From an uncultured Clostridia bacterium (lineage in GTDB: Bacteria; CAYTYR01; UBA6262): a stretch of 64,000 bases of DNA. The stretch spans positions 35,348-99,347 of the forward strand of contig CAYTYR010000003.1 of assembly GCA_964441745.1 (NCBI GenBank), in the 5' to 3' direction. Below the pieces are notes generated by a model that saw only the letters and a program-made list of their open reading frames with translations, did not search any database and was not told the DNA's origin. Shown in pieces: positions 3,234 through 37,563 of the stretch (the stretch's first letter is position 1; every line of letters starts with the position of its first letter). The position numbers and the translations under genes were made by a program.

Positions 3234-3241
3234 CATCTATG

Positions 3242-3628: not shown

Positions 3629-3639
3629 TTATTATCTCC

Positions 3640-6177: not shown

Positions 6178-6192
6178 ATTTTATGATCTCAT

Positions 6193-9789: not shown

Positions 9790-12504
9790 ATGACTAACTC
9801 TAAATCTAATAAAAACCCAATCTGGCAGTTTACTGACGACCAGGGAACTTTTATTATGCCTAATCCGCAAGCTCTCTCGCGGCTCTATTTCCCGTTATGT
9901 AATGAACAAGGATTGATGGCGGCAATTACTCCGGACCTGCACGGCGATATTAAAACGGGACAGAATTCCTTTCTGCTGCAACCAGTCACTGAATTTGACC
10001 TGCATAATATTAAATCCAAACGTGATTTCTGGCTTTCTATTGAAGGAGACGGAGCTTTTTCCCTGGCGACACTGGGGCGGGAAGACACCCAGCTGGAAGC
10101 TGGATTCCTATACCAGAAAATAATCCGGAAAATAGCCAAGGTAAACCTGGAAACAGAGATCACCAGCTTGGTGCCTGTCTCCGGCGAACCGCTGGAATTA
10201 ATGCGGGTCACTATTAAGAATACCGGCCGCAAACAACTGGCGATCACTCCGACCTGCGCTATCCCCATCTATGGCCGGTCCGCGGAAAATTTACGCGATC
10301 ATCGTCAGGTTACTTCCTTATTACATCGTATCCTGGTCAGCCGCTCGGCTATTACCGTCACGCCCACCATGAGTTTTGATGAGCGGGGCCATACCTTAAA
10401 TAAGATCTCCTATATCGTGCAAGCCTGTACCGGCGCCGGCGGCTTACCGGTCGGGGCTTTCCCGACCGTAGAAGAATTTATCGGCGAGGGCGGAGACTTG
10501 ACTCATCCGGGCAGTATCCTGCGCCAGGTTCCCCCTACCGCCCAGAACGGCGCCACCAGGGCTGGTAAGGAAGCTATGGGCGCTCTGCAGTTTGCCCAGG
10601 CTATTCTTAAACCAGGCAAAGAGCTCTCCTATATAGTGATCATGGGTATTACCTCTGATCCCAAAGATACCAAGCGCTGGTTAAATAAATTCGGTTCGGC
10701 TGAAAAATTCTCTAAAGCTTTAACCGCCAACCAAATTTATTGGCGGGAGCGATTGGGACAGATCACCTTTAACACAGATAATGATAAATTCAATAATTGG
10801 ACTAAATGGGTCATGCTGCAGCCGATACTGCGGAAGATCTGCGGTAATTCCTTTCTGCCCGACCATGACTACGGCCGGGGCGGCAGGGGCTGGCGGGACT
10901 TATGGCAGGATTTACTGGCCTTGATCCTGATCCATCCGGGAGAAGCCAGGAGTTCCCTGATCAATAATTTCGCCGGCGTCAGGATCGATGGGTCCAATGC
11001 CACTATTATTGGCCATAAGCCTGGAGAATTCATCGCGGACCGCAATAATATTTCCAGGGTCTGGATGGATCATGGCGCCTGGCCTTACCTGACTTTAGAA
11101 TTGTACTTACATCAGACCGGGGATTTTGAAATTCTCCTGGAAGAAACTTCCTATTTCCGTGATCCGCAGCTAATGCGCGGTAAACACAAAGATCTTGACT
11201 GGACTCCCCAGCACGGCCTGCAGTTGAAAACTAAAAAAGGAGAGCTTTACTGGGGCAGTATTATTGAGCACATCCTGGTGCAGCACCTGGTACAGTTCTT
11301 TAACGTGGGAGAACATAATCATATCCGGCTGGAAGGCGCGGACTGGAATGACGGGCTGGATCTGGCCAGCGAACGCGGCGAGAGTGTAGCCTTTACCGCC
11401 TTATATGCCGGCAACATGTTGAAAATCGCTGATTTACTGGAAATTCTGGGCCAGCGCAAGCAGATCACTACCCTTTCTTTAGCGACTGAAATCCTGATCC
11501 TGCTGGATACCATCGGCGCTGCTGCCAATTATAATGTGATCAGCGAAAAACATAAAACCCTGGACCATTATTTTGCCGCTGTTACCCCAGCCCTCGGCGG
11601 CAAGAAAAAAGAAGTCCCCCTGACCGCCATCATCAAGGACCTGCGCGCTAAAGCAGAATGGCTGCGCAAACATATTAATGAAAATGAGTGGCTCACCATT
11701 AAGGGAGGAATAAATTTCTTTAATGGTTATTATAACAATGACGGCCAGCGCGTAGAAGGAGAACAGGCCAAAGGCCTGCGCATGACTTTGCCTGGACAAG
11801 TATTTCCTATTATGGGACAAGTAGCTAAAAACGAGCAAATTCCCCAGATCTTTGCGGCGATCAAGAAATATTTACAAGACAAAAACTCAGGCGGATTCCG
11901 TCTTAATACTAATTTCCATGAATTGCAGCTTAATCTCGGACGGGCTTTTTCATTTTCCTATGGCGACAAGGAAAACGGCGCTTTCTTTAATCACATGTGC
12001 ATCATGCTGGCTTATAGCCTCTATACCCGCGGCTTTGCCAGGGAGGGCTATGAAGTACTTAGTTCCATCTACCACATGGCTTCAGAAACCGCGCAAAGCA
12101 AGATCTATCCCGGGATCCCGGAATATTTTAACTCTGCCGGCCGGGGCATGTATCACTACCTGACTGGATCCGCCAGCTGGTTTATCGTGACCCTGTTGGA
12201 AGAAGTTTTTGGCGTCAAAGGATATTTTGGCGATCTCCTGCTTAATCCCAAATTCTCCTTAACCCAGATCAACGAATTAGGCCAGATCAGTGTGACCACT
12301 ACCTTTGCCGAAAGAAGAATTAAGGTGACCTATAACAATGCCCGGAACCTGGAATATAATAAATATTCTATCCAGGCCATCACTATTAATGGTGAAAAAT
12401 CAGATTTTAGGCTGATCGGCAAGGCCGCGGCCCTGATCTCCCGCCCGGCTTTGCTCAAGCGCGCTGCCAAAAAGGTTAACCTGATTGAAGTAACCCTGGA
12501 ATAG
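9790..12504 (+). CDS. large (alpha/alpha)6-type glycoside hydrolase/phosphorylase, GH94/GH65-like
   Basis: about 905 aa from ATG 9790 with AAGGAG SD at 9774-9779; EGADWNDGLD motif resembles catalytic segment of cellobiose-phosphorylase-like enzymes; family assignment from memory only. Confidence 0.5.
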   Translation: MTNSKSNKNPIWQFTDDQGTFIMPNPQALSRLYFPLCNEQGLMAAITPDLHGDIKTGQNSFLLQPVTEFDLHNIKSKRDFWLSIEGDGAFSLATLGREDTQLEAGFLYQKIIRKIAKVNLETEITSLVPVSGEPLELMRVTIKNTGRKQLAITPTCAIPIYGRSAENLRDHRQVTSLLHRILVSRSAITVTPTMSFDERGHTLNKISYIVQACTGAGGLPVGAFPTVEEFIGEGGDLTHPGSILRQVPPTAQNGATRAGKEAMGALQFAQAILKPGKELSYIVIMGITSDPKDTKRWLNKFGSAEKFSKALTANQIYWRERLGQITFNTDNDKFNNWTKWVMLQPILRKICGNSFLPDHDYGRGGRGWRDLWQDLLALILIHPGEARSSLINNFAGVRIDGSNATIIGHKPGEFIADRNNISRVWMDHGAWPYLTLELYLHQTGDFEILLEETSYFRDPQLMRGKHKDLDWTPQHGLQLKTKKGELYWGSIIEHILVQHLVQFFNVGEHNHIRLEGADWNDGLDLASERGESVAFTALYAGNMLKIADLLEILGQRKQITTLSLATEILILLDTIGAAANYNVISEKHKTLDHYFAAVTPALGGKKKEVPLTAIIKDLRAKAEWLRKHINENEWLTIKGGINFFNGYYNNDGQRVEGEQAKGLRMTLPGQVFPIMGQVAKNEQIPQIFAAIKKYLQDKNSGGFRLNTNFHELQLNLGRAFSFSYGDKENGAFFNHMCIMLAYSLYTRGFAREGYEVLSSIYHMASETAQSKIYPGIPEYFNSAGRGMYHYLTGSASWFIVTLLEEVFGVKGYFGDLLLNPKFSLTQINELGQISVTTTFAERRIKVTYNNARNLEYNKYSIQAITINGEKSDFRLIGKAAALISRPALLKRAAKKVNLIEVTLE

Positions 12505-17884: not shown

Positions 17885-20535
17885 CTACAATAAATCTTCC
17901 ACTTTAGTCACCACTTTATACTCAACATCCTTAAATTCCTTAAAATGGGCTTCCCCGCACTTGATCTTCATTCTCTCTTCCGGATATAATTCATTCATTT
18001 CCCGGGTTGATTTCGTCTCCGCCACGAAATACAGCTTCTTCTCCCCTTTAAAGATCAAGGCCCAATCGGGGTTATAACTGCCCAAGGGCGTCTTTATCTT
18101 GAACCAGGCAGGGAGTTTTATGTAGAACTCAACATTATCGTTAGTCTCGCAATCACTGGCGAACCGTTTTTCCGGTTCGCTCATTGAATCTATAGAAATA
18201 TAATTAGCTATAGTTTTATCCTGCTTTGATACTTGATAGAGATTCTTTCTATATGCCTCCACCTCATTGTCTTCGAATAATCTCATCTCATATTCAATAC
18301 CATTGATCTTTTCATATTTTATCCCATCCACAATCATTTCGGCTAAGACATTCTTTATCTCCGCTGTCGCCATATCCATGAACATTTGAGGATTTCTCAA
18401 GATATCAACCAGCCGGCCAGAGCCTTTCAATATCCGCAAGATCGTTGATCGGGTTAATTCGGTTCTCGATTGTATATATCCCAGCACATCCGGGACATCA
18501 AACAAAGGATTTTCAACCTGAGTTATTCCCACACCCTTCTGCACTCCGGTTAATCCTTCTCTGACGACCTGCATTCCCGTTTTAACATACTTAATGATCG
18601 GCTTGCGCACCGCAGGCATATTCTTTATCTCTTTGACCGACGCTTCTATAAGCTTTTCAGTATCGAAATCAATATTATAAGTTGTTTTATGTTTTATTTT
18701 GTCCCATAGCTCCTTAAACTTCTCATCAAACTGGTAATTTTTTCTTAACCGCACTTTCACCCTTTCGTTCTTATTTCTTATCCTCTCCTTGAATTCGACT
18801 CCGCAATCCTCTTCCATTTCTTTCTGTAACTCTGCAGCGAATTCCTCGTAACTTTCATTGGCAATAACCGTCAACCTGTTAGTGTTCTTATCCTGGATCC
18901 TGTCGCCTTGCTGATCCACGCAAAGCCGCAATCCCCTGCCAATTTCCTGCCTCTTTTTCATCTCGGATCTCGTCTCGTTCAGAGTGCATATCTGGAAGAC
19001 ATTGGGGCTATCCCAGCCTTCTCTTAAAGCAGAATGACTGAATATAAATCTTAGAGGATTATTAATATCGAGAAGTCGTTCTTTATCCTTCATTATCAAC
19101 CTGTATGTATCATCATCTGCCAGGGTTTCCCTGGATTCAGAAGAATCTTTAAAGATCCCTTTTTTGTCCTGCGCGAAATAGCCGTTATGAACGACTTCAG
19201 ATTGAAAAGGGATAACTCCCTGATATTCTTTTTTCCCCGCTATTTCCTTGAATATTTCTTCAAACCAGAGGGCAAATTTTCCTTTCGCAGGGTTCCCCGC
19301 CTCATCATAACTGCGGTAGTTGGCTACCCTGTCTATAAAGATAAGCGAAAGGACTTTTATTCCTTTTTCTTTATATTTTTTCTCTTTCTGGAAGTGTTCT
19401 TCCACAGTCTTCCTGATCTGGACCTTCATAACTTCATCCAGCAGGCCGCCCCTCTGCTCTCCAACCGCCAGTATCTCTCCATTGGAGAGCTCAACCTTGC
19501 CTTCCCCCACGTCTATGGCATTAATAATATATCCTTCCCGGTAAAGCTCTCTTTTATTTGATTTTTCATACAAGTCATCTCCAACCTCAACATTCACTGT
19601 TTTCCTGATTATTCCATTCTCGCCAAGGGTATCCAAGCTTATTTTTGCCAGAGTCTTTGTTTTCTTGGCCTTAATATCTTCAACCTTCAGAAAAGCCTGA
19701 TTACTGCTATTCTCGGCAAAAATTGAATCAACTTCTATCTGTTTGACTAATCCCAGATCATAAGCTTTGACAGGATTAAGGCTGTAAACAAGGTTATACA
19801 GATTTGCGTGAGTAGCAGAATAGCGGAGAGTGCAGGCAGGATTCAGATTATCTATGGCCTTTTTCCTTATTTCCGTTTCCATGTTCTGAGGTTCATCAAC
19901 AATGACTATGGGATTCGTCGCCTGTATGAATTCTATCGGTTTCTTCCCGGTTAGTTTATCATTAAACTTATTAATAACATTCACGTCCTTGGCAAATGAA
20001 TCAATATTGATGACCAATATCTGAATGTTATTGTTTAGAGCGAAATTCCTTAAAAGGGATATTTTCCCCGGATCATACACGTTGAATGTCGCCGGTTGTT
20101 TCTCATACAAAGACTGGAAATGGTCATGGGTTATCTCAAGGTTCTTAATAACTCCTTCTCTTATGGCGATGCTGGGGACTACGATTATAAACTTTTTGAA
20201 TCCATAGCGTTTATTAAGCTCATATATGGTCCGCAAATATACATAAGTCTTTCCTGTACCTGTCTCCATTTCCACTGAGAAATTAAGACCTTGCAGGTAT
20301 TCCGCTTCTTTGAGCCCATTTTTCCGCTGAATTGCCTGAAGATTTGCTAATATTTGCGCTTCTTCCAAAACTATCCCATTTCCAACACCGTTTTCAGACA
20401 GCATATAGCCGCTATTGGGAGACAAAGAAAATTCATAATCGCTCTTATTTAAAGGCTGCCCCTCGAACAGGTCAACTATGGAGTTAATAGCGTCTATCTG
20501 ATACTGCTGGTTTGGATCAAAATGGAGTTTCATTA
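17885..20535 (-). CDS. res: Type III restriction enzyme, Res subunit (helicase-nuclease)
   Basis: Walker A METGTGKTYVY, motif II VIVDEPQNM, C-terminal nuclease region; real start is ATG at 20533-20535 (MKLHFDPNQQYQ) with AAGGA SD, not the upstream in-frame start at 20668. Confidence 0.9.
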
Positions 20536-20543
20536 TTATCCTT

Positions 20544-21275
20544 CTATTTAAACATCCGCAGATAATCTTTCTGTGTTTCCCTGACCATACGGGCAATAAG
20601 ATCAACAAAATCCCGATCGTTTCCGTCTCGCGCTGTTTCCAAAGAAGCGATATATTCCTGCCTGACAATGGGCGGGATTATGGTTATAACATAACCTTCC
20701 TGCATTAAAATAGTGTTCATCAGCAGCCGCGCCACTCTGCCGTTACCATCCAGGAAAGGATGAATAAAAACAAATTCTTTATGAGCCAATGCCGCGAACT
20801 CCACCGGGTGTTTTTGCCGGCGCAGTCTGCCTAATTTTGGCGGCAATCGTTTCATCAACACTGGTAATTCCGCCGGTAAGGGCAAGGGATACTTGGAACC
20901 TGTAATAATAGCTCTTACCTTCCGATACTCACCGGCATTTTCCCGATCTATTCGATAATAGAAAAGCCGGTGCAAATCTTTTATCCCGCGTTCGGTTACG
21001 GTTTTTTTCCTGGCCAGTTCATACATAAAGTCATAGGCTTCGCTATGCCCGGCTGCTTCGTAATGATCTCTTAATGGTTTACCGCCAATGGTAATACCGT
21101 CTTCAATAACCACCTTAGTCTCAGATTCTGTTAAGGAATTACCTTCAAGAGCGTTACTGGCATAGGTTAACCCTATGCGGAAATATTCTTTTGTTTGCTC
21201 TAACAAATGCTTATCCAAAGGCCGGCGCTTGTTTATCTCTGCCTGTAATTTATCTATTTCCTGATAAATAGTCAT
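20544..21275 (-). CDS. fic: Fic family protein
   Basis: 243 aa; canonical Fic motif HPFLDGNGRVARLL; AAGGAG SD 7 nt upstream; stop is 9 nt before the res ATG. Confidence 0.85.
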   Translation of the reverse strand: MTIYQEIDKLQAEINKRRPLDKHLLEQTKEYFRIGLTYASNALEGNSLTESETKVVIEDGITIGGKPLRDHYEAAGHSEAYDFMYELARKKTVTERGIKDLHRLFYYRIDRENAGEYRKVRAIITGSKYPLPLPAELPVLMKRLPPKLGRLRRQKHPVEFAALAHKEFVFIHPFLDGNGRVARLLMNTILMQEGYVITIIPPIVRQEYIASLETARDGNDRDFVDLIARMVRETQKDYLRMFK

Positions 21276-21288
21276 TACTTAGCTCCTT

Positions 21289-21336
21289 TCAAAGCTCTAT
21301 CTGATACTGCTGGTTTGGGTCAAAATGGAGTTTCAT
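21289..21336 (-). repeat. R2: duplicated copy of res 5' end forming a 15-codon mini-ORF (MKLHFDPNQQYQIEL)
   Basis: ATGAAACTCCATTTTGACCCAAACCAGCAGTATCAGATAG matches the real res start (20497-20535) with one mismatch by eye, then diverges into the Fic RBS. Confidence 0.7.
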
Positions 21337-21369
21337 TATTTATTTCTCCAACTATTTCCAATATTCTTA

Positions 21370-21398
21370 TTGACATCATGGCGCCAATGCTGTAATAT
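21370..21398 (+). promoter_or_regulatory. consensus-like sigma70 promoter (TTGACA-17 bp-TAATAT)
   Basis: TTGACA at 21370-21375, 17-bp spacer, TAATAT at 21393-21398, in a 400-bp noncoding gap and pointing antisense to the RM operon. Confidence 0.5.
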
Positions 21399-21404
21399 TA
21401 TATT

Positions 21405-21550
21405 AGGCAATAATGCTAATAATTTTGGATCGGGGTGTCCCCGGTCGGTATTAATGAGCGGTAAGTCCGTTGTGAATTGTTCCAAGTGTTCCCTTCCATA
21501 GGTTGGCTATAGCTTGGACGCAACAAGTTCACAGGGCGCGCTCATTTTTT
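21405..21550 (+). ncRNA. candidate structured small RNA of about 145 nt, antisense to the Type III RM operon
   Basis: downstream of the promoter; local hairpin GATCGGGG-TGT-CCCCGGTC (21427-21446); long-range pairing AATGAGCG (21452-21459) with CGCTCATT (21538-21545) followed by T-run 21545-21550; only coding potential is a 15-aa ORF without SD. Confidence 0.35.
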
Positions 21551-21672
21551 ATTTTATGGCAATTTTGCCTTCATTACCCTTCCCATCACATGACCATCAC
21601 ATAAGATTTGCTTTATTTATCAACACATTTTGCCATTTAACAAATTCACACAAACTTACAATCACATAAACC

Positions 21673-23130
21673 TTAAGACCATATTGGTATATACTTAGCA
21701 TACTTTCTCGATTTATTCTCTGGATCAAAATCTTTAATTAATCTTGCTTTGATGGTATCAGCTATTATTCTTGAAACTATTGAGTAATTCTTTTCATCTA
21801 TTTTAAATCTTTCTCTTAGAGACTGATTGGTCATGTTACTATTTGAGACATATTTTAAGCAACAATGTTGATAACATGCTCTTATTTTATCATCTTTATC
21901 CATCTGCTTTAGAGTTTTATAAGAATACATAATAACCTTCAGAAAATTATCTCCCTCAATGAATTTCGGCGCAGGTAATTGATACTCCTCTACTTTATCA
22001 ATAACTTTATCAATACCGCTCCCTCTTTCTTCACAAATACCTGCCCTCCGCATAAAAGAAGCAACTTTCTCATTTCTTGACTGAGGATGATGGTCAATAA
22101 ACCTTAAAGTGCTAATTAACGGCTTTCCCGGATTAGTAATTTCAATTCTATCGTTAAATATTTCAATCATAGGCCCAGTGCCAATTTCATTAAAATCCTG
22201 ATGGATTAATGCATTGGCTACTAATTCTCTTATTGCTATTTCAGGATACATTTTTACTTCTTTTCTAAATGCTCTTCCTATTTCTTCATTTGCTTGCAAG
22301 TTATCATTAATATAATCAATTAATCCCTCAAATCCATTGGCATATCCTTTAGCCCCAATTTGTTCTTTTTTTGTATGTAATCTGTCATTACCCTTATATA
22401 TAATAACCCTGATTGCCTTCCTATTTAATCTTTCAAAATACGAAAGATTATTGGCTATCAAAATAGTGCCCAAATTAGTAATACTATGGCTATTTATTTC
22501 TTTAAGAATAAATCTTTCTCCTTCTAAATGTTTTAAAATAGCACTTTTATCAGCGGGTAAATTCGACTTCAATATCCTAAAATAACCTGGATAATCTAAT
22601 AATTCAAGTATTTTATCTTCATCCAATTCTTTCGCGGCTATGTCTTTTTCAAAACTATACGCTAGTGTTTTATTCCATATTTTTCTCGCTTTTTCTGGCA
22701 AGTCCTTTAATTTCTTTTTATAACTGCCAACTCTAATATACTCTGCCCCTTTAAAACCTACTGGCGTATTATGAGTAGCATTGATTTCAAACATTACAAC
22801 AGGAACCCCTTCATACTCAAATTCATTAATTCTGAAATCAATTCTCGGACTTAGCAATCTAATTAACCAATTTTCTAATTCCTCATTACCGTTTTTTGTT
22901 TGGCTAGGCTTAAAATCTGTACCAACTACTTTATGGGTCTGATCTTCAATGCCAAAAACAAAATATCCATAGCTTCTATTATGTAAGCAAGCTGAATTAG
23001 ATAAAGCAGATATATACTCCCCAATTTCATCAAGTGAGCAACTTAAATTTTGCTTGAATTCCACCCACTCTGTTTCCTTTGGCAGCATTATAAGTTCTTT
23101 TAATTTATTCTTAAGATCATCTGTGTTCAT
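21673..23130 (-). CDS. AlbA_2 (Schlafen-like) plus HATPase_c_4 domain protein, putative nucleic-acid-binding ATPase/regulator
   Basis: 485 aa; N-terminal ETEWVEFKQ...FVFGIEDQTHKVVG resembles AlbA_2; C-terminal ALIHQDF...IEIFNDRIEITNPG resembles HATPase_c_4; start overlaps R1 mini-ORF stop (ATGA). Confidence 0.65.
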   Translation of the reverse strand: MNTDDLKNKLKELIMLPKETEWVEFKQNLSCSLDEIGEYISALSNSACLHNRSYGYFVFGIEDQTHKVVGTDFKPSQTKNGNEELENWLIRLLSPRIDFRINEFEYEGVPVVMFEINATHNTPVGFKGAEYIRVGSYKKKLKDLPEKARKIWNKTLAYSFEKDIAAKELDEDKILELLDYPGYFRILKSNLPADKSAILKHLEGERFILKEINSHSITNLGTILIANNLSYFERLNRKAIRVIIYKGNDRLHTKKEQIGAKGYANGFEGLIDYINDNLQANEEIGRAFRKEVKMYPEIAIRELVANALIHQDFNEIGTGPMIEIFNDRIEITNPGKPLISTLRFIDHHPQSRNEKVASFMRRAGICEERGSGIDKVIDKVEEYQLPAPKFIEGDNFLKVIMYSYKTLKQMDKDDKIRACYQHCCLKYVSNSNMTNQSLRERFKIDEKNYSIVSRIIADTIKARLIKDFDPENKSRKYAKYIPIWS

Positions 23131-23180
23131 TTTATTTCCTTTGATAGATATCGCTGGTTCGGATCAAAATGGAGCTTCAT
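23127..23180 (-). repeat. R1: diverged copy of res 5' end forming a 17-codon mini-ORF (MKLHFDPNQRYLSKEIK)
   Basis: ATGAAGCTCCATTTTGATCCGAACCAGCGATATCTATC resembles res start; its TGA overlaps the ATG of the 485-aa ORF. Confidence 0.65.
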
Positions 23181-23200
23181 GAAGCAGCCATATATTTTCC

Positions 23201-25084
23201 TTATATGGTTCTGAATTCTATTCCTGCGTCTTTCATTTGCAGGACGGTATTTGTTTTAAGCTTGTCATTGCCGGCAAATAAGGAATCCAGGCACAGGCAT
23301 TTGGCAGGCTTTTGTTTGACTATTTCCTTGATCAGCTTGCTGTTTACCTCAGATAGAATAACAACCATTTCGCCGTTATTTACCGTATAAATCGGCGCAC
23401 CGTCTATTTTTTCTTCTTTCGCGACCGTATTCAGGCCGTAACCGGTTTTCAGAAGTATTTCCCATAGCATATTGGTTTGTTTTGCCTTAGGTTTAACCGG
23501 ATACTCAAAAGCATCCATCTGCTTCTTAAGTTCAGCTTCCTCTGTTATGACATCATTTCGCCAAATCTTAAAATTGGATAGCTTCAGCTTATATACTTTG
23601 AATCCCAGGTCTATTTCTTTAGGCCGCTCTTCCTTGCCTATCTGTTTAATTGCTCTGCGAATTCTTTCTTTGGCGATATCTGCTATGGTTTTATACCCGG
23701 CCTTATAAGCTTCTGTTTCTGCTTCAGTTTTTTCCGGAAGCTGGACGCAGATAAACTTTCTATTCCCCCCATCTTCCTTGTTTAAATCTAAAACAGCATG
23801 AGCAATAGTTCCGGACCCAGCAAAAAAATCAAGAATAATATCATCAGATTCAATACCGGTTATTAATTCTATTAGTTTTTTCATTAATCTTACAGGTTTA
23901 GGTGTATCAAAATACGATTCACCATTAAAAATTTCTTTAATCTCTCGTTTTGACTCCTGATTATCTCCAACTATATCTCTTGTCCATAGAGTTATGGGAG
24001 TAACTGAAGTTTTTACCTCTGATAAAAATCTTTTTTGTCTCGGAATATTGTCTCCATACTCTCCAAACCATATACGATTATCTTTTAGAAGCTCACTAAA
24101 TTTTCTCTCACTAACAACCCAACATCTTCCTTTTGTCGGAAAAACTTTCCTTCCGCTTGGTAAAATTATGGGATATAGTTTTTCCTTGATTTCTGGCCCC
24201 ACCGTTAAATCACCTGATGACCAAGGGCCTCTTAAATCATTATCAGGATTATGATATCTTGAATTAGTTTCTTCTGTTCTTTTTAACCCCAGCACACCTA
24301 GTTTTTCTACATTTTTTGCATAAACTAAAATATAATCATGACTCGTTGAAAATGTGGTTTTTAAATTAATGGGCGAAAATGCTTTCTCCCAAATTATACT
24401 TGCCACAAAATTCTCTTCTCCGAATATCTCATTCATTAACAGCCTGAGATTATGGACTTCATTGTCATCTATGGAAACAAAAATAACTCCGTCTTCACAG
24501 AGCAGATTTCTGGCGAGGAACAGTCTTGGATACATCATGGAAAGCCAATTGGAATGGAAATGGCCATTTTCTTTGTTATTTTTTCTAAATAGCCCTTCCT
24601 TCAACAGATAGCCTTCTTCGTCCTTTTCCCCTATTCTTTTCAGATAGTCTTCTTTGGACTCGGAAAACCGGTCAGGATAGATAAAATTGTCATTGCCGGT
24701 ATTGTAGGGCGGATCGATATAGATCATCTTGATCTTGCCATAGTAGGCTTTCTGCAGGACTTTCAAGACTTCGAGGTTTTCCCCTTCAATGAATACATTG
24801 CCTGTTTTATCAAAATTGACGGATTCTTCAGGGCAAGGAGCCAATGTAGCAGTTGTAGGAGTTTGCAGGACCTTAAAAGCTTCGGACTTACCGGCCCAAT
24901 TAAGGACATATCGCTCATTCTCCAGGGATAGCTCTTCACCTAAAGTAAGCTTGAGCTTCTCCTGATCTATTTTCCCTTCGCTGAATACCTCTGGAAAAAG
25001 TTCTTTTAGTTTCTTTACTTTATCCTTTTTCACATCTACCGATTTTCCATCCATTCCTGTCTCCTCTATTACAAACTTATTCAA
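23201..25084 (-). CDS. mod: Type III R-M Mod subunit, N6-adenine DNA methyltransferase
   Basis: 627 aa; DPPY motif in MIYIDPPYNTG; AdoMet-binding DFFAGSGT; overlaps upstream Fic gene by 8 nt. Confidence 0.9.
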   Translation of the reverse strand: MNKFVIEETGMDGKSVDVKKDKVKKLKELFPEVFSEGKIDQEKLKLTLGEELSLENERYVLNWAGKSEAFKVLQTPTTATLAPCPEESVNFDKTGNVFIEGENLEVLKVLQKAYYGKIKMIYIDPPYNTGNDNFIYPDRFSESKEDYLKRIGEKDEEGYLLKEGLFRKNNKENGHFHSNWLSMMYPRLFLARNLLCEDGVIFVSIDDNEVHNLRLLMNEIFGEENFVASIIWEKAFSPINLKTTFSTSHDYILVYAKNVEKLGVLGLKRTEETNSRYHNPDNDLRGPWSSGDLTVGPEIKEKLYPIILPSGRKVFPTKGRCWVVSERKFSELLKDNRIWFGEYGDNIPRQKRFLSEVKTSVTPITLWTRDIVGDNQESKREIKEIFNGESYFDTPKPVRLMKKLIELITGIESDDIILDFFAGSGTIAHAVLDLNKEDGGNRKFICVQLPEKTEAETEAYKAGYKTIADIAKERIRRAIKQIGKEERPKEIDLGFKVYKLKLSNFKIWRNDVITEEAELKKQMDAFEYPVKPKAKQTNMLWEILLKTGYGLNTVAKEEKIDGAPIYTVNNGEMVVILSEVNSKLIKEIVKQKPAKCLCLDSLFAGNDKLKTNTVLQMKDAGIEFRTI

Positions 25085-26198
25085 AAAGTTTCACATAACC
25101 TTGATAAGCATATACTCGGTTTCTCCTTTGCCCCGTTAATTCTTTTAAAATATCTAATTTAAGCAGTTTTTTAGTCAAGACAATAGCATTGGGATTGGCT
25201 AATCCTGTTATTTGTTCAATATCTTTTATTCTTACCAAGGGCTTTTTATATAATGCGTTAAGCAAAACCATAGCTTTTTCTGAGCGGCCCATGCTTACCA
25301 CTTTCTCTATATCCCTCTGCCTCAGCTTATGGATTTTTCTGGCAGTTTCTACCGCTCTCTCGGCAGTGTCGATTACTCCTGATAGGAAAAATATAAGCCA
25401 TCCTTCAAGATCATCTTTCTCCCGAGCGGTATCAAGCTTATCATAGTAATCTTGCCTGAAACGCTTAAAAAACTCTGATATACACAAAAGTGGTTTATGG
25501 AGAATCTTCTGCTGGCATAAATAAAAAGTAATGAGCAATCTCCCAATTCTGCCGTTTCCATCCAGAAAAGGATGTATCGTTTCAAACTGGTAATGTATTA
25601 ATCCAATTTTAATAAGTACTGGCAAAGGCGCCACATCATGTATAAAACTCTCTAAATTTCCCATTAAGGCTAATACTTCATGCGCTGGGGGTGGAACAAA
25701 AGAGGCGTTTTGCAAAGTCACTCCCCCTATCCAATTCTGGGAGGTTCGAAATTCACCCGGATATTTTCCTTCTCCTCTGACTCCTTTTAGGAGAATGGCA
25801 TGTATTTCTTTAATGAGCCGCAAGGAAAGAGGAAGTGTTTCAAGGCGTTCCAGCCCGTAATCCATAGCTTTTATATAATTCAATATTTCTTCAACATCTT
25901 TATGTATTTCAAAATCTTCCAATTTTGCTTCTGCTTTGAGAACATCAGAAAAAGTAGCTTTGGTGCCTTCTATTTGACTGGAAAGAGCCGCCTCCTTCTT
26001 TATATACATAAAAATAAAGAAATTAACATCTGGCAATACATCAGCAATCCCATCCAATCGACCTAAAGCCAGATCCGCTTTCGAAAGAAGATCCTGCAAT
26101 AAATAATCTTGCTTAATATTAAAAGGCAAGCGGTTAGGTATAAAAGCCTTATATTGCAAATCTCCTTTTAACTGATTAACATAATTCCCTGTTCTCAT
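25077..26198 (-). CDS. fic: Fic family protein with C-terminal winged-helix-like domain
   Basis: 373 aa; Fic motif HPFLDGNGRIGRLL; first gene of the RM operon. Confidence 0.85.
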   Translation of the reverse strand: MRTGNYVNQLKGDLQYKAFIPNRLPFNIKQDYLLQDLLSKADLALGRLDGIADVLPDVNFFIFMYIKKEAALSSQIEGTKATFSDVLKAEAKLEDFEIHKDVEEILNYIKAMDYGLERLETLPLSLRLIKEIHAILLKGVRGEGKYPGEFRTSQNWIGGVTLQNASFVPPPAHEVLALMGNLESFIHDVAPLPVLIKIGLIHYQFETIHPFLDGNGRIGRLLITFYLCQQKILHKPLLCISEFFKRFRQDYYDKLDTAREKDDLEGWLIFFLSGVIDTAERAVETARKIHKLRQRDIEKVVSMGRSEKAMVLLNALYKKPLVRIKDIEQITGLANPNAIVLTKKLLKLDILKELTGQRRNRVYAYQGYVKLFE

Positions 26199-26204
26199 AA
26201 CACC

Positions 26205-26335
26205 TCAACCGTAGATAAGATTTTTAATAACTACGATATCATTATAATTCGTAGATAGTAATTTGTCAAGTTTTTTTAATCGTAGATTAGACTAAAATTA
26301 TCTATGATAATTATTAATATCATAGATTATAGCTA
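26205..26335 (-). promoter_or_regulatory. promoter/operator region of the Fic-mod operon with iterated YRTAGATW repeats
   Basis: at least six copies in both orientations (CGTAGATAAG, CTACGATATC, CGTAGATAGT, CGTAGATTAG, TATCTATGATA, CATAGATTAT) within about 130 bp. Confidence 0.45.
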
Positions 26336-26388
26336 AGTATTATCATATATTGGCATGTAAGTTAGTAGGTAGTGAAGCAAGGGGAAAA

Positions 26389-30664: not shown

Positions 30665-33340
30665 TTACAGCGACAGGGTAAACAGGTTCATTAATTTATC
30701 ATTGTTCATTTCGGTTATCCAGGCCTCGTTTGAGCTTTGGATGATTTCGTTTGACAAGTGTGTTTTTTCCTCAAGCATGGCGTCAATCTTTTCTTCCAGT
30801 GTGCCTCTGGTGATAAACTTATGCACCAGAACATTTTTTTTCTGGCCTATCCGGAAGGCTCGATCGGTGGCCTGGTTTTCCACTGCCGGATTCCACCACC
30901 GGTCAAAATGAATAACCTGGCTTGCCGCGGTCAGATTTAAACCGACTCCCCCGGCCTTAAGCGATAATACCATAAAAGGAACATATTCATGACTTTGAAA
31001 CTTTTCTACGATTTCCCGGCGTTTTTTAACCGGCGTACCGCCGTGGAGGACCAAACCCTGATGCTTAAAGATTGTTTCCAGATATTCCTTGAGCGGTCCG
31101 GTAATTTCCTTGAATTGCGTAAATACTAAAACCTTCTCTCTTTTTTCATAAATTGTTTCACAAATTTCGCGCAACCGCTGAAATTTGCCGCTGTCCGGTT
31201 CGCCATATTCATTCCTGCCCAAATATTGATCCGGATGATTGCAAAGCTGTTTAAACTTCATCAACGAAGCCAGAATCAGTCCTTTGCGCTTAATCCCCCC
31301 GGGTTCCTCTTCCAGCGCGGCTTTTAGTTCCGCCACAAGATTACCGTAAAGAACAACTTGTTTTTTGCTTAAATCCGCGTAAGTTTTCATCTCGACTTTC
31401 TCCGGCAGATCGGAAATAACAGACTTATCGGTTTTCAATCTTCTTAAAAGAAACGGCGCCGTAATTTTCTTCAGCCTGGCGTAACCGCCTGGATGGTCTT
31501 TTAATTCCTTAGAAAAATCGGAAAATTCTTTGCTGCTGCCGAGCATCCCGGGATTTAAAAAATCAAATAACGACCAAAGATCGCCTAAATTGTTTTCAAT
31601 CGGCGTGCCGGTCATAATTATTCTATTGTTGGCCTGCAAATTTTTAACTGCTTTGGTTTGTTTTGTGCCGGGATTTTTAATGGCTTGCGCTTCATCTAAA
31701 ATAACATAATTCCATTTGCGCGCTTTAAGCCAATCATACCTTTTGATTAAAGCATAAGTTGTTATAATAAGATCGTATTTGCCGCTAAAATCCTTGTCCC
31801 GACCGGCCTCGCCGCTATTTTTCTCAAACGAAGGATGAGCGATATAATACCTAATCTCCGGCGAAAATCGGCCTATTTCGCTAATCCAGTTAGAAATCAG
31901 GGAAGCGGGTATGATCAGCAGGCTGGCCGGATTTTGCCTGCTTGTTTTCAGCGTATTTAAGAAAGCCAACAGTTGTATTGTTTTCCCCAGCCCCATATCG
32001 TCGGCCAGACAGGCGCCAAACTGCAAAGAATGCAGGAAATAAAGCCAGTTCAACCCTTTCTGCTGGTACGGCCGAAGTTCTGCCAGAAAGTTTTTGGCGG
32101 GAGTGATTGAATCAATCAGCTCAGGTTTGCGCAGTTTTTCCACCACCCCTTTAAGCCATTCCCCGTTGGAAATACCGGCAGTCTCTCCATCGCTAACCCC
32201 CAGTTCTTTTTGTAAATTAAGCTGCAGATACATGGCCTCTTTTAAAGTTAAAGCGCCTTGTTCCATCAATTGTTGCGCTTTTTTATAGGCTTCCAGAGTT
32301 TTTTCGAGTTTTTCCGGGTCCACCTCCACCCATTTCCCCTTAATAAACGCCAGCCCGGCTGATTCATTTAAAAGTTTTCTTGCCTCCTCTTCCGACAGCT
32401 CGCTGTCGCCGCATAAAAGTTGTGTATTAAAATCAAGCAGCGAATCCTGGCCGAGAAACGACGGCGCTATATTGCCGATCCTGATATCCAGCTTTAGAAC
32501 ACTTGTTCTGTTCTTCCACCAGTTGGGAATCCGGCAAAGTATGCCGGATTTTTCATAGAGAGGAATTTCCTTTAAAATATCATAGGCGTCTTTGGCCGAC
32601 AAGGCCAGCGGATGAAATATTTCCCCGTTTTCAATAAGCCCGGCAATGATCCGGCTGTCTTTGGCGGCTAAATAAACAGTGGCCAAAAGTTCCAGCAGTT
32701 TTTTGTTGTTTTTGCCGTATTCGGTTAAGGCATACTTTAAGGGAATATGCTTGGCTTTCCCCTGCTCGTTTAAGCCGGTAGAATAGGTGGCTAAAAAAGC
32801 AAAAGGAAACTCCTCTTTTTTACTTTCCACCAAATGAAAATAAACCCGTCCGGCCAGATGAACATCAGCGCTGAAAGTTTTAATAAAATCAGCAACGGAG
32901 CCTCTATAAGTTTTCACTTTATGGCTAAAGGTAAGGTTTAGCTTTGACCAAATATCTTTCAGAAAAGACGGGTTTACATACTCTGCCCCAACCATAAATG
33001 GCCGCCGGGACAGAAAATCGTCAATCTCGTCAGTCGTTAAAACAAGCTCTACCCGCTCGCGCAAACCCTCAAGATCGGGTGTTTGCGCTAATTTTTTTAC
33101 ATACCTCTCCCCTAACTTTCTAAAAAATTCCAAACTTGCCGCTAACGGCACGGCTTGATTGCAAAATCCCAGCAACAGGAGAAAAGAGCCAAAGTCTTCC
33201 CGGTAGCTTTTGTATAATTCATTTTGCAGCAATTCCTGATCCTTGTTTAGCGGCTCTGCCCTGTCCTGCCATTCCAGTTCAATACTCTGACCCGGTAAAC
33301 AAACAACTGTTAATTCTTTATTCATTTTCTTTTTCCTCAT
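30665..33340 (-). CDS. SNF2-family helicase/ATPase
   Basis: 891 aa; motif I LADDMGLGKT, motif II DEAQAIKN, SNF2 block GTPIENNLGDLWSLFDF, C-terminal helicase domain. Confidence 0.85.
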   Translation of the reverse strand: MRKKKMNKELTVVCLPGQSIELEWQDRAEPLNKDQELLQNELYKSYREDFGSFLLLLGFCNQAVPLAASLEFFRKLGERYVKKLAQTPDLEGLRERVELVLTTDEIDDFLSRRPFMVGAEYVNPSFLKDIWSKLNLTFSHKVKTYRGSVADFIKTFSADVHLAGRVYFHLVESKKEEFPFAFLATYSTGLNEQGKAKHIPLKYALTEYGKNNKKLLELLATVYLAAKDSRIIAGLIENGEIFHPLALSAKDAYDILKEIPLYEKSGILCRIPNWWKNRTSVLKLDIRIGNIAPSFLGQDSLLDFNTQLLCGDSELSEEEARKLLNESAGLAFIKGKWVEVDPEKLEKTLEAYKKAQQLMEQGALTLKEAMYLQLNLQKELGVSDGETAGISNGEWLKGVVEKLRKPELIDSITPAKNFLAELRPYQQKGLNWLYFLHSLQFGACLADDMGLGKTIQLLAFLNTLKTSRQNPASLLIIPASLISNWISEIGRFSPEIRYYIAHPSFEKNSGEAGRDKDFSGKYDLIITTYALIKRYDWLKARKWNYVILDEAQAIKNPGTKQTKAVKNLQANNRIIMTGTPIENNLGDLWSLFDFLNPGMLGSSKEFSDFSKELKDHPGGYARLKKITAPFLLRRLKTDKSVISDLPEKVEMKTYADLSKKQVVLYGNLVAELKAALEEEPGGIKRKGLILASLMKFKQLCNHPDQYLGRNEYGEPDSGKFQRLREICETIYEKREKVLVFTQFKEITGPLKEYLETIFKHQGLVLHGGTPVKKRREIVEKFQSHEYVPFMVLSLKAGGVGLNLTAASQVIHFDRWWNPAVENQATDRAFRIGQKKNVLVHKFITRGTLEEKIDAMLEEKTHLSNEIIQSSNEAWITEMNNDKLMNLFTLSL

Positions 33341-33456: not shown

Positions 33457-34602
33457 TCAAACTTCACCTGCATTGCTTACTATCTTGAAATCAACCCCCA
33501 GTTCTTCAAAATGTTTTTTCCCGCAGTGAACTTTATCCGCTTCGTCCGGGCGCAATTTGGCAAGGTCGGCAAATGCCTTTGTTTCCCTTACCAAATACAA
33601 CGTTTGATCACCCTGCTTAACGATTGCCCAATCCGGATTATATGTCCCCAGCGGCGTGGTTACCTTAAACCAGTCCGGCAGCTTAACAAATAATTTAATA
33701 TCCTCACGGCTATCTAAGGCCTGCGCAAAGCGGCGCTCAACGTCAGAATCAAACTCAACCGCATCATAGACCGATTTACCAACGTCCACCTAGAACAGAA
33801 GCCACCTCGATACATTTGACCAACCGCATATCGTATGCTTTGACCGGATCCAACTTATATAGAAGGTTATACGGATTCACATGCGTAGCGGAATAACGAA
33901 GCGTACATAAAGGATTTAATGTTTCGATCGCTTCCTTGGCTTTGTCGGTGTTGTCAACGCTCTGCGGCTCATCGATAATCACAATCGGATGCGTCGCTTG
34001 AATAAACTCGATCGGCTTACGCCCGGAAAAACGATCGTTTTCCCTATGGATAACATTACTCTTCTTCTCATCATCCTTGTCCTCAAGCGTCTTGATTACT
34101 CGTAGCAAACTGCCGTACCTGACTGACCTTCTTGGAATCATACACAAAATAATCGAACGCCACGTTATTGTATAAATGTAAAAAGTGGTCGCGCGTAATA
34201 TCAATGTTTTTGAGAACACCCTCCCGGATAGCAACACTGGGAACAACGATAACAAATTTCTTAAAGCCGTATTTCTTGTTCAGCTCGAAAATAGATCGCA
34301 AATAAACATACGTCTTGCCGGTGCCGGTTTCCATTTCCACAGAAAAATGCCTCCCCTGCAAGACGCCAACCTTCTCAATCTCGTCTTTCTCCTGAATCTT
34401 CCAAACGTTATCCAGAAGCTTCTCATTATCCAGCACAAGGCTATTTCCAACGCCCAACTCTCGAAGCTCAAGAAGCCCGTAAGCTGTAGTAAAACTAACC
34501 TCAAAGTCCGCTCCCGGTCAAAGGCTGGCCGTCAAATACGCTGACCACAGCATTAACGGCATTAAGTTGATATTGTTGATTGGGGTCAAATTTTAATTTC
34601 AT
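33457..34602 (-). pseudogene. res: decayed Type III res gene (frameshifts plus large internal deletion)
   Basis: three ORF fragments in different frames match res 17885-20535: N-terminus MKLKFDPNQQYQL then stop after 33 codons, Walker A METGTGKTYVY fragment, DEPQ fragment, C-terminal nuclease fragment; about 1.1 kb versus 2.65 kb for the intact gene. Confidence 0.8.
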
Positions 34603-35591
34603 TTCTTCTTTCTTCCATTCCCAATCTGTTTAACAATTTTGTCAAAATCACTAATATAATCCTTACCTCTCTCTTTTCTGTAAATTTCGAATTCTTCTCC
34701 GGCCTTTTGAGCGGCTTGTTCGGCGCTTATGCTTCCGGCGTCAGCAAGAAGTTTCCGCTCGCTTAATTTCAAAAATTGATCCAGTTTTTCCACCCAATCC
34801 GCCATCTTCATCAGCCTGCCATTGGTTGCCTGCAATTCCGCAAAATCAAGATACATTGATACAATCAGATTAAGCTGGTTTAGCTCTTTTTCAGAAAGAT
34901 AGTTTTTCGCGATTTTAACATCTTGCGAAGTAATATAATTACCTTTAAAACTGGTAAGCCCCATTAATGGTTTTTGACTATCCGCGCGTTTTACTACAAT
35001 TTCCGCCGCGGTATGGCCGTGAACCGCGTAATGCATTTTATTCTGCACAGTAGCGAAAAACTCTTTAGTAAGATTATCGTCTTTGCGGTAATCAACGCTG
35101 GTAGCGTAAATATCGGTAACTTTCTGGTAAAAATTGCGCTCACTGCTTCGAATATCGCGAATACGCTGCAATAGTTCCTGAAAATACCGCGCTTTCTGCC
35201 CGCCCTGTTTTAATCGCTCATCGTCCAATGTAAACCCCTTGACGATATACTCTTTCAGGCGCTGAGTCGCCCAAATTCTAAATTGCGTTCCGCGAACCGA
35301 CTTGACCCTATACCCAACCGAAATAATGACATCTAAATTATAGCAATTTGTCGGTTTGGTAGAAAATTCGGAATTCCCGAATTTTCTCATCGTCTCCCCC
35401 TTCATAAGCTCTTTTTCTTCATAAATATTTTTTATGTGTTCATTGATTGTGGATTTTGATTTTTCAAACAACTCGGACATCTGATCCTGCGTAAGCCAAA
35501 CGGTTTCATCTTCTATCTTTACCTGAAGCCTTGCCTGCCCGTCTTCAGTTTCGTAAATGGTTATTTTTGCATCCTCAACAGGTTTTTTCAT
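34599..35591 (-). CDS. rhuM: RhuM-family protein inserted between mod and res of the decayed RM locus
   Basis: 330 aa; IYETEDGQARLQVKIEDETVWLTQDQMSELF and SVGYRVKSVRGTQFRIWATQRLKEYIVKGF are characteristic RhuM blocks; stop overlaps res2 ATG (ATGA). Confidence 0.75.
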   Translation of the reverse strand: MKKPVEDAKITIYETEDGQARLQVKIEDETVWLTQDQMSELFEKSKSTINEHIKNIYEEKELMKGETMRKFGNSEFSTKPTNCYNLDVIISVGYRVKSVRGTQFRIWATQRLKEYIVKGFTLDDERLKQGGQKARYFQELLQRIRDIRSSERNFYQKVTDIYATSVDYRKDDNLTKEFFATVQNKMHYAVHGHTAAEIVVKRADSQKPLMGLTSFKGNYITSQDVKIAKNYLSEKELNQLNLIVSMYLDFAELQATNGRLMKMADWVEKLDQFLKLSERKLLADAGSISAEQAAQKAGEEFEIYRKERGKDYISDFDKIVKQIGNGRKKK

Positions 35592-35641
35592 TAATAATCC
35601 CCTCTTTCTCTAACCCAACAGCTAAAGAATTACCGGCATTT

Positions 35642-37563
35642 CTACACCGTCCTAAAATCCTCGACGCCTTTTGATTTCATAATCTGAACAGCATTTGTTT
35701 TCAGCTGATCATTACCGGCAAAACCCTGATCCAAACAAATAACCCTACTGGGCGTTTTTTCAGCCATGGCTTTGATAACTTCTTTGGTCAATTCTTTCTC
35801 CAAACAAATCAGCATCAGCCCACCCTCGATGGAATAAATCGTCTTCCCGGCCATAATGGCTTTTTCGATCTTAGTCGTTAACTCAAATCCCGCCTTTAAG
35901 AGCAGTTCAAAAAGAATGTCCTCTTGCGAACTCTTAGGATTAATATGATCTACATGCATTACAAGTTGCTTCTCAACTATCTCTTTCTGCGCGTCAATAT
36001 CTCCTTCCCAAACCTTAAAAGTAGATTTGGCCAATTTGAAAACCTTAAACCCGAGAGCATTATTACTTAGCAAACTCACCTGAGATCCCGGCTCTTGTAA
36101 AGTTTTAATAATTTTCCTTAGACGCTCTTTACCAATATCGGCTATCGTCTTGAAATCATCTTTTCTGTTTTATCATCGAGAAGCTCTGGGAGTTGTATAC
36201 ATATAAATTTTCTTCCGATGTTATCCTGACGGTTCATTTCAAGAACGGCATGCCCAGTCGTTGCAGATCCAGCAAAGAAATCCAACACATAATCATCTTT
36301 ACCTACGCCCGAGATCGACATCAAATGAGCGATTAATTCAAAAGGCTTAGAAAAAGGAAAATCTATTCCAATTTTAATCAACGCCTTAGATCCGCACGAA
36401 TTTGTAAAAGATTTGTTATCAAACAAGGTATTAGGACGCAACCCCTTTTCTAGTCGCTCATTCAAATAAAGTTTTGTGTATACGTTCCAATTCGCTTGCT
36501 TCCCTTTTTGATCTAACAACGGCGACGTTTTGGTTTTCTTAAAAACAACTCGATTATCTGAAAGGTTCTTTTTGAACGTTTCTTCTGTCCATCTAAATAC
36601 TTTTCCGGCCGGGGGAATCACCTTTGTCCCATCCTGACATTCAATGTAATACCTTTGATTCGGACGCAAGTCTAAACTCGGCATGTATAGCGAAACTTCG
36701 TTGTACTTACCTCTCTTATCTTCGAATTTAAAAAGGCTGACATAATCTTCGTCCGCTTGCGCAGACCGATCAGTGAATTCAGGAAGACTGGATATATGTT
36801 TTGCATACGATAAAATATAATCACACGATGGTGAAAAGTGCGTCCCCTTGTTTGAGGTTAACTTGGACACTCGAGTTACAACATCCAATGCGTTCTCCTC
36901 GCCAAATATTTCATCGCACATTTTTCTTAAATGTGAAAACTCTCCATCGCCAATGCTAATAAAGATTATTCCATCTTCGCGTAATAAATTTCTCGCTAAA
37001 TACAACCGTGGATACATCATATTGAGCCATTTAGTATGGAAACGGCCACTATCTTCTGTATTGGTCGAAAAACGCCTCCCCTCATCATCCATCTGCCCTG
37101 TGTATTTCAAATATGTTTCCAAATTCTCAGCGTAATCGTCAGGATAAATAAAATCACTTCCGGTATTGTATGGCGGATCGATGTAGATCATCTTTATCTT
37201 GCCATAATACGATTTCTGCAAAAGCTTTAAAACCTCAAGGTTATCGCCTTCAATAAACAAATTCTCTGTTGTATCAAAGTTAATAGATTCATCTTTAACC
37301 GGAACAAGCGTTGCAACGCTCGGAGCCTGAATATTCTTGAAACAATCCGCTTTTCCCGGCCAATTCATCCCAAAACGTTCTCGACCAACGTCTGTATTTT
37401 CACCAATTACCACCCGTAATTTATCAATATCTATTTTTAGCCCTTCTGTGAAAACCTCGGGAAACGCCTGCTTTAATTGCCGTAATTTATCTTCCGGGAT
37501 ATTCATGGATTTCAAATCAGCTTTTTTAACTTCCGACATACTATTTTCTCCTTTTAAGATCAA
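35642..37563 (-). pseudogene. mod: Type III mod methyltransferase disrupted by a frameshift
   Basis: N-terminal ORF 36142-37563 (IYIDPPYNTG, DFFAGSATTG) and C-terminal ORF 35642-36079 both align to mod 23201-25084; frame breaks near 36140-36150 at an A-rich tract. Confidence 0.75.

Follow-up and report, generated by a model that had tools for sequence, protein, structure and literature searches.

Gene content of the Type III operon

The window analysed here, 64,000 nucleotides (nt) from an uncultured Clostridia bacterium, carries on its minus strand, from position 26340 to 17885, a Type III restriction-modification (RM) operon in which additional genes, hereafter cargo, stand between the methyltransferase gene mod and the endonuclease gene res. 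The order of features, the gene sizes and the domains reported in the first-pass annotation (operator repeats, a Fic gene, mod, a gene for an AlbA_2/HATPase_c_4 protein, a second Fic gene and res) were all recovered, and Pfam and PADLOC scans matched Fic, AlbA_2, HATPase_c_4 and ResIII alike. The genes are not decayed, as had also been proposed: the catalytic motifs are complete in both Fic proteins, in Mod and in Res, and within an intact Type III operon the cargo genes, likewise intact, lie tightly packed and in the same orientation as mod and res.

Type III systems perform ATP-dependent cleavage at two inversely oriented unmethylated sites, and Mod confers hemimethylation. The Mod methyltransferase of the window (617 amino acids (aa), 23201..25054, minus strand) matched Pfam N6_N4_Mtase (5e-37) and PADLOC MTase_III (717 bits, 5.8e-216), with motif IV DPPY (residue 114) ahead of motif I FAGSG (residue 411), which is the order of beta-class N6/N4 enzymes. 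Judging from the sequence, its start is most likely ATG 25054, which has a GAGGAG site and agrees with both the MTase_III profile start and an independent gene call of 617 aa; with this start the spacing between the upstream Fic gene and mod is 22 nt, and the 8-nt overlap noted earlier for these two genes is an artefact of open reading frame (ORF) calling that depends on TTG 25084. Res (882 aa, 17885..20533, minus strand), a superfamily 2 helicase with a C-terminal PD-(D/E)xK endonuclease (ResIII and RE_endonuc domains), lies downstream of mod on the same strand, as in the Type III arrangement; it matched PADLOC REase_III at 1000 bits (2.7e-301) and has the motifs GTGKT, DEPQ, QEIGRGLR and PDW...ETK. 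A 927-aa ORF called for res is over-extended, given that Res profiles begin at its residue 46, corresponding to ATG 20533, which comes 10 nt past the stop of the preceding Fic gene. The score of Res is below the NCBIfam PRK15483 equivalog cut-off (323 vs 564), indicating that the Res clade is distant from the enterobacterial enzymes, and its only close relative is P0121, a member of the same 90%-identity cluster. Phylogenetic incongruence between Mod and Res was considered as a sign of a junction swap and turned out to be uninformative, because Mod is 50-57% identical to all relatives.

Cargo 1 (21673..23130, minus strand) encodes a Schlafen-type protein of 485 aa with Pfam AlbA_2 and HATPase_c_4 domains, for which PADLOC gave weak matches only (PDC-S50, 5.6e-07). 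Its orthologues, 62-69% identical, occur across phyla, some in defence or mobile islands, and in Jettenia the orthologue is nested in a Type I operon (hsdM-hsdS-[AlbA_2]-hsdR). The family is widespread, embedded in or beside RM systems, and occurs outside RM operons too; a role as sensor, which the first-pass annotation had given to this protein, found no support. Cargo 2 (20544..21275, minus strand) encodes Fic243, a class II Fic protein of 243 aa with a FICD-like core; like the AlbA_2 gene, it sits between mod and res and shares their strand. Five PADLOC PDC-S04 models matched it with E values from 3e-29 to 2e-11, no PADLOC score cut-off being applied. Both Fic proteins of the operon have HPFLDGNGRxxR together with the SxxxEG inhibitory motif. 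Conserved cassette flanks around Fic243 were looked for among its relatives and none was found, DNA homology running from ATG to stop only.

The operon has a G+C content of 0.377, which falls to 0.313 within the AlbA_2 gene, compared with ~0.46 in the flanks, and the low value of the operon fits horizontal acquisition. The identical locus was seen only in one NCBI contig and one Logan assembly (SRR13007709); Res, the AlbA_2 protein and Fic243 align to homologues over their full length. Promoter and terminator prediction gave neither a strong terminator nor a minus-strand promoter between the operon genes, and a single polycistronic transcript is plausible on these predictions.

Cargo and res 5′ stubs at mod-res junctions

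A Res-alignment scan of GTDB species genomes returned 80 loci from many phyla, in 67 of which both genes could be placed; a locus was taken as cargo-bearing when at least 600 nt separated mod and res, and cargo ORFs were counted from 100 aa upward. In 38 of the 67 loci 0.6-5.5 kb lie between the two genes and in 26 the junction is canonical (0-62 nt), so that the earlier statement that mod and res alone make up a canonical Type III system does not describe this Res clade. The synteny comparison showed that the mod-cargo-res order recurs across phyla with different cargo, which is diverse and turns over between loci. The first cargo gene typically starts 0-20 nt past mod, the last cargo stop is typically no more than a few nt from the res ATG or overlaps it, and 71 of the 77 cargo ORFs (92%) are co-directional. 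This cargo includes AAA_21 plus DUF4276 genes, that is HEC-01A/B (eight of the AAA_21 genes, six as pairs), a pair formed by a ~870-aa ABC-type ATPase (Ppl-like) and a ~390-aa AlbA_2/HATPase_c_4 protein in five loci, YhcG/DUF1016 (PDC-S02), NsnA/GmrSD_N, PIN+EVE (PDC-M11A) genes and an Eco57I-like methyltransferase gene, along with HerA-like, Macro, KilA-N and Bro-N proteins and several ORFs without family assignment. We consider it rather probable that the operon of the window is a horizontally acquired, intact Type III RM unit of a widespread Res clade, whose mod-res junction is a recurrent landing place for mostly defence-type genes.

The junction of the window contains repeated copies of the start of res. 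A segment from -6 to +39 of res is present three times in direct orientation, at 20493-20537 (the real start), at 21296-21340 (44 of 45 nt identical to it) and at 23140-23184 (33 of 45 nt, 73%), and a profile built from res 5′ ends hits each of them. Stub 1 (23127..23180, minus strand; nhmmer 20.6 bits) is a 17-codon ORF encoding MKLHFDPNQRYLSKEIK up to its stop; the repeat copy lies 20 nt past the mod stop, the stub makes up the 70-nt interval between mod and the AlbA_2 gene, and its TGA overlaps the AlbA_2 ATG (ATGA). Stub 2 (21289..21336, minus strand; nhmmer 31.5 bits), a 15-codon ORF encoding MKLHFDPNQQYQIEL up to its stop, ends 13 nt upstream of the Fic243 ATG, with AAGGAG within those 13 nt. 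Each protein cargo gene is preceded in this way by a stub of the first ~35-41 nt of res, and a whole res start follows the last cargo gene, which argues that the cargo did not simply land in an intergenic spacer. The two near-identical copies are spaced by 803 nt, a distance compatible with a small circle having integrated in the Campbell manner, or with a double crossover in which stub and res were the homology arms.

Independent res 5′ stubs stand immediately upstream of cargo in the loci L002, where this cargo is a different AlbA_2 gene, and L005; in L016, which has another independent stub, an AlbA_2 stop overlaps the stub ATG and two more cargo genes follow. A scan of metagenomes with a degenerate res 5′ DNA pattern returned 101 contigs with 74 occurrences followed by at least 700 nt of sequence; res goes on in 57 of these, and another 12 are stubs no longer than 50 codons. 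Six contigs (L099, L127, L137, L149, L177, L189) have the stub stop overlapping the ATG of the following gene, which encodes an NYN protein, a RhuM-Fic fusion (four contigs) or one other product. The fusion of L177 has 332 aa (Pfam), and L149, L127 and L137 align to it at 88-89%. A recurrent ORF of 29-30 codons, running from the Res N-terminus MKLHFDPNQ.YQ..A.K.IV to ...NLNYNQRP and a stop, was observed in L117, L118, L127, L137, L149 and L177, and in the four contigs checked (L127, L137, L149, L177) its TGA overlaps the following ATG. No mod was found within 12 kb upstream of the stub in L127; the stub thus seems to travel with the cargo.

A serial array is present in L142, the metagenome contig VAPE01019237.1, whose region 200-4200 reads Fic (389 aa)-stub (2790)-stub (3325-3368)-MNT-HEPN-res (4103). 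L142 and L177 share, at 90% identity, the MNT-HEPN block and the 60 nt that begin res; their homology ends at res nt 60, where res continues in L142 and the RhuM-Fic gene follows in L177. Another block of L142 (~211-584) is 92% identical to L127, through the start of a stub. In-frame fusions of the res 5′ end (26-41 codons) with a 3′ fragment of mod (Mod aa ~506/540-617) occur in L134 and L171 and, from the sequence, look like junctions produced by recombination between tandem or different mod-res units. L189 has at 10565-12059 a lone 18-codon stub between a recA-like gene with a 98-aa ORF on one side and a XerC/D-type tyrosine recombinase gene on the other; no mod or res was found near this stub, which may mark where an RM unit was lost. 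Other irregular res genes were observed in L110 (12726-13100), where a large internal deletion joins aa 1-48 to aa 837-881, and in L105 and L115, which have an in-frame stop after res codon 151, with Res aligning over aa 1-278 (to the contig end) and aa 1-881, respectively. The latter stop is either a nonsense mutation or the mark of an organism with a reassigned stop codon.

The window itself holds a second, decayed Type III locus (33475..37518, minus strand), with a res 5′ profile match at 34602. Its mod2 is frameshifted near 36163, and res2 is a pseudogene with frameshifts that lacks aa 273-777 and is left as fragments of aa 1-31, 31-168, 182-272 and 778-876. Between the two, an intact RhuM gene (35591..34599) has its stop overlapping the res2 ATG at 34602 (ATGA). 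The genome hence has two related Type III loci, one intact and one decaying, with cargo at the same junction. A 168-aa SNF2/ResIII fragment (37678-38184, minus strand) lies just upstream of the second locus and an 891-aa SNF2 + DUF3670 helicase gene (30665-33340, minus strand) just downstream; the second RM locus may have inserted into or beside a duplicated SNF2 gene.

Promoter region, Fic373 and the DUF3800-V RNA

The operator repeats described in the first-pass annotation are real: six copies of ATCTAYGAT with at most one mismatch lie in 26208-26327, against 13 in the other ~64 kb. The putative operator array (26208..26327, minus strand) is composed of two palindromes ATCTAYGAT-N10-ATCRTAGAT, at 26300-26327 and 26229-26256, and two half-sites, at 26279-26287 and 26208-26216. 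A sigma-70 promoter matching the consensus at 12 of 12 positions (TTGACA-17-TATAAT) is predicted here, with the -35 box at 26269-26264 and the -10 box at 26246-26241, and the palindrome 26229-26256 straddles the -10 box.

The gene that follows (25077..26198, minus strand) encodes Fic373, a SoFic-type class II Fic AMPylase with a C-terminal winged helix (Pfam Fic_N + Fic). PADLOC SoFic matched it with 397.6 bits (1.5e-119), covering 5-358 of the 361 profile positions, and phmmer aligned residues 41-370 to residues 38-359 of 3EQX (E 2e-34), as well as to 3ZCN and 9TCL. The Fic motif HPFLDGNGRIGR at residue 209 conforms to HxFx(D/E)GNGRxxR, and the class II inhibitory motif SSQIEG is found at residue 73. 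SoFic-type dimers with a winged helix-turn-helix (wHTH) bind their own promoter, at most 100 bp from the ATG, and SoFic AMPylates EF-Tu, blocking translation (bioRxiv 10.64898/2026.07.09.737422); wild-type EcSofic is toxic, and the class II Fic "Sofic" has been reported as an anti-phage system (PMC12249575). By analogy, the full-length alignment to SoFic and the palindromic operators overlapping the only strong promoter suggest that Fic373 is likely a repressor or autoregulator of the whole operon; it is also a likely defence effector of the toxin type. A small antitoxin ORF of the AS1 type downstream of Fic373 was ruled out, there being no room for it since mod follows after 22 nt.

A Fic gene is placed upstream of mod in only 3 of the 80 fetched loci. 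In L053 (Saccharibacteria) the order is again SoFic-like-mod-cargo-res, and a distinct inverted-repeat array lies upstream; such different repeats are as predicted by regulator-operator co-evolution. SoFic-like genes 34-42% identical to Fic373 recur around the Type III clade, between mod and a res stub in L100 (4486-8230), immediately ahead of the stub in L122 and immediately upstream of mod in L053 (5110-6306); a weaker Fic-domain match lies just upstream of mod in L057.

The interval of 397 nt between the AlbA_2 gene and Fic243, considered in the first-pass annotation to be noncoding (~400 bp), holds, apart from stub 2, a full-length DUF3800-V structured RNA on the plus strand (Rfam RF02964, 21451..21548; 71.5 bits against a gathering score of 37.4). 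This match spans model positions 1-96 of 96 and is the sole Rfam match in the window. The nested stems come out in the minimum free energy fold (z = -2.6), there is a U-run behind the outer stem, and a promoter-like TTGACA-17-TAATAT at 21370-21398 (plus strand) is predicted to be the RNA's own promoter. Relative to the operon the RNA lies antisense, and it points towards the AlbA_2 gene in a convergent arrangement. At 21580-21669, in the stretch separating the AlbA_2 stop from the RNA 3′ end, we also observed TTATGTGAT(T/G)GT-like direct repeats (a 25-nt pair, 72% identical).

The function of the DUF3800-V motif is not known (Weinberg et al. 2017, PMC5737381). The canonical pair is found in the phage contig L090 (IMG/VR), where the DUF3800 gene is convergent with the RNA and both are inserted moron-like (1833-6731) between the genes for the terminase large subunit, which carries a Hint (intein-like) domain, and a Mu-type portal protein. 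The copy of the window shares with L090 the full-length match and the convergent geometry, but its neighbour is the AlbA_2/HATPase_c_4 gene and not a DUF3800 gene. Neither a DUF3800 gene nor a remnant was found in the gap or in the window by tblastn with the L090 protein and six-frame reading, which is a weak test, and Pfam gave no DUF3800 domain in either neighbouring protein, AlbA_2 or Fic243. The possibility that the RNA is a conserved partner of the AlbA_2/HATPase_c_4 protein was rejected, as no Rfam match lies beside four orthologues (L082, L084-L086); Rfam also detected no DUF3800-V RNA in eight Type III loci with AlbA_2 cargo, and no other fetched Type III locus gave a sequence or motif match to the window RNA. 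With neither a DUF3800 gene nor a conserved partner found, the RNA of the window appears to be an orphan copy.

Origin of the arrangement and relation to known systems

In the mechanism that we propose, cargo would enter by recombination inside the highly conserved res 5′ end, the incoming DNA supplying a new res start and the old one being left behind as a scar, the stub; the route could be Campbell-style integration of a circular unit of cargo and res 5′ end, or a double crossover via the stub and res arms. The stubs might then serve as short leaders from whose translation ribosomes move on to the cargo, through the ATGA overlap or across the 13-nt spacing, and the operon would be a chain of coupled cistrons expressed from one strong promoter and read through the antisense small RNA gene. 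SoFic-type dimers would repress this promoter in a controller-protein role, with the winged helix on the two ATCTAYGAT palindromes, and convergent transcription of the antisense DUF3800-V RNA may damp the downstream expression of Fic243 and res. A first line of defence would be the restriction of unmethylated DNA by Mod and Res, and the auto-inhibited Fic AMPylases could act as co-regulated second-line or abortive effectors, as PrrC backs EcoprrI; the AlbA_2 protein might do so too. In its general form we offer only tentatively the idea that the first ~40-60 nt of res constitute a recombinase-independent docking sequence, at which cassettes of cargo and res 5′ end insert by short homology, regenerate res, stack, and can be lost between stubs. 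If this were true, Type III operons would gather defence genes much as integrons gather cassettes, and the stubs would find a second use as leader ORFs for translational coupling.

Several observations weigh against parts of this picture. About 35 of 39 cargo-bearing loci have no stub at all, so that recombination leaving a scar would be one route of entry and not necessarily the main one. Stubs at different loci break off at different points of res (~nt 17, 30, 41-42, 60 and 100, the last in L005), and a homology as short as 45 nt comes close to the minimum that RecA-dependent recombination requires. The Shine-Dalgarno sequence of stub 1 is poor and the AlbA_2 gene has its own AAGGA, hence translational coupling may be unimportant there, and a promoter-like internal site (25178-25149, 9 of 12 consensus positions) could drive mod independently. 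Fic373 scores 163 bits with the NCBIfam SoFic equivalog model NF046030, whose cut-off is 550, and is thus a member of the SoFic family and not an equivalog of the Shewanella enzyme; its binding at the ATCTAYGAT operators is put forward by analogy with SoFic and CccR. Finally, the nearest relatives of Fic243 (78-82% identity) are solitary genes in housekeeping or insertion sequence contexts, and Fic243 need not be a defence gene.

This last point agrees with a different explanation, which we regard as possible, though somewhat less so than the docking sequence: that the Fic genes, the AlbA_2 gene and the small RNA are selfish hitch-hikers in a "genomic sink", independent and possibly addictive mobile genes that would accumulate between mod and res only because insertions are tolerated there and spread along with the RM unit, without cooperating with it. 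The solitary relatives of Fic243 stand beside an IS200-type transposase gene, beside RhuM and a transposase gene, or beside housekeeping genes; the AlbA_2 family also occurs outside RM operons, wild-type Sofic is toxic, the DUF3800-V RNA has no partner gene, the second locus retains an intact RhuM gene while mod2 and res2 decay, and the option was raised by Payne et al. 2024 too. On the other hand, 92% of the cargo is co-directional, with junctions that look translationally coupled, much of the junction cargo comes from experimentally validated or candidate defence families, and in two distant phyla the operon begins with operators and a SoFic-type gene. Of the composite defence module proposed in the first-pass annotation one part stands, in that SoFic and PDC-S04 are defence or candidate families of PADLOC; a single machine, as opposed to independent embedded systems, found no support. 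We infer a defence function of the cargo and its co-transcription, and, from the analogy with SoFic, operator binding.

It is improbable, in our judgement, that the two HTH-bearing proteins, Fic373 and the AlbA_2/HATPase_c_4 protein, are mainly regulators of the RM system, that is C-protein analogues timing Res expression and not effectors. Such a role would accord with the operators overlapping the only strong promoter, with the promoter binding of SoFic, with the deposition of 3EQX as "Fic domain containing transcriptional regulator" and with the JGI name of the AlbA_2 family, "predicted HTH transcriptional regulator"; however, complete catalytic and inhibitory helix motifs are kept in both Fic proteins, SoFic has an enzymatic target in EF-Tu and a reported anti-phage activity, and among related loci 26 of 67 are free of cargo and only the 3 of 80 already mentioned have a Fic gene upstream of mod. 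Least probable of all, and very unlikely in absolute terms, is an integron-like site-specific system in which the res 5′ end would be an attachment site and a dedicated recombinase would move the cassettes. The serial stub-cargo-stub arrays of the window and L142, the MNT-HEPN block with the res 5′ end shared by two contexts and the tyrosine recombinase gene 240 nt downstream of the lone stub of L189 are in its favour. A precise att-like site in res was nevertheless rejected because the breakpoints differ between loci, and their variation speaks for recombination, homology-guided or illegitimate, in the most conserved stretch of res and against a site-specific recombinase with a precise target; moreover, no recombinase or transposase gene was found in or beside the window operon or, at the genomic loci, among the cargo ORFs sampled, and most cargo has no stub. 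The landing of mostly defence-type genes at the mod-res junction of a horizontally acquired Type III unit remains the reading that we prefer.

More than half of the loci of this Res clade have cargo and many of the cargo ORFs belong to no assigned family, which makes them a ready source of new defence candidates and would extend "guilt-by-embedding" to Type III RM. By analogy with SoFic, the protein and operators at the head of the operon suggest that transcriptional control of a restriction system can be a second task of a Fic enzyme, and the orphan DUF3800-V RNA inside the operon is a new context for an RNA class without known function.

Compared with SoFic of Shewanella oneidensis (3EQX, 3ZCN), Fic373 shares full-length similarity, the inhibitory helix, the Fic motif, the wHTH and inverted repeats at the promoter; unlike it, Fic373 heads a Type III operon and does not stand alone, and it is without the 47-aa AS1-type antitoxin ORF. 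RM systems with C proteins have a pair of palindromic operators over the promoter, and their first gene encodes an HTH DNA-binding C protein of ~80 aa. The operator and promoter layout is shared, whereas the putative controller here is a 373-aa Fic enzyme with a wHTH; general family scans gave nothing further in the operon proteins, no search aimed at C proteins having been made. With the PrrC anticodon nuclease of the EcoprrI Type IC locus and TgvAB of the Type I RM system on Vibrio cholerae VPI-2, the operon would share a latent toxin or second restriction activity placed inside an RM operon as backup; here the candidates are Fic AMPylases and an AlbA_2 protein, and the backup link to Mod and Res is drawn by analogy. 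The likeness to integron arrays lies in promoter-proximal, co-directional, promoterless cassettes split by a recurring short sequence, but the operon lacks an integrase and attC-like structures, its junctions are not at fixed positions, and what recurs is coding sequence, the 5′ end of res.

The closest parallel is the embedding of defence genes in defence operons described for Type I RM, BREX, DISARM and Hma, with 96.7% co-orientation and with the significance and origin of embedding still to be explored (Payne et al. 2024, bioRxiv 10.1101/2024.01.29.577857). The first-pass annotation had asked whether the arrangement was already described: embedding in general is, and the literature searched yielded no account of res 5′ stubs or of mod-cargo-res embedding in Type III systems. 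What appears to be new here, as read from the sequence, is the Type III host, the recombination scars as candidate leader ORFs, the putative controller of the Fic type and the orphan DUF3800-V RNA. The same-orientation nesting and the families HEC-01, PDC-S02, PDC-S04, PDC-M11 and GmrSD-like are common to the embedded systems and the loci described here; the difference is that the host is a Type III system, the insertion is at the res start and the stubs are its physical trace, sequence-level insertion scars that bear on the origin of embedding and suggest a simple homology-based route.

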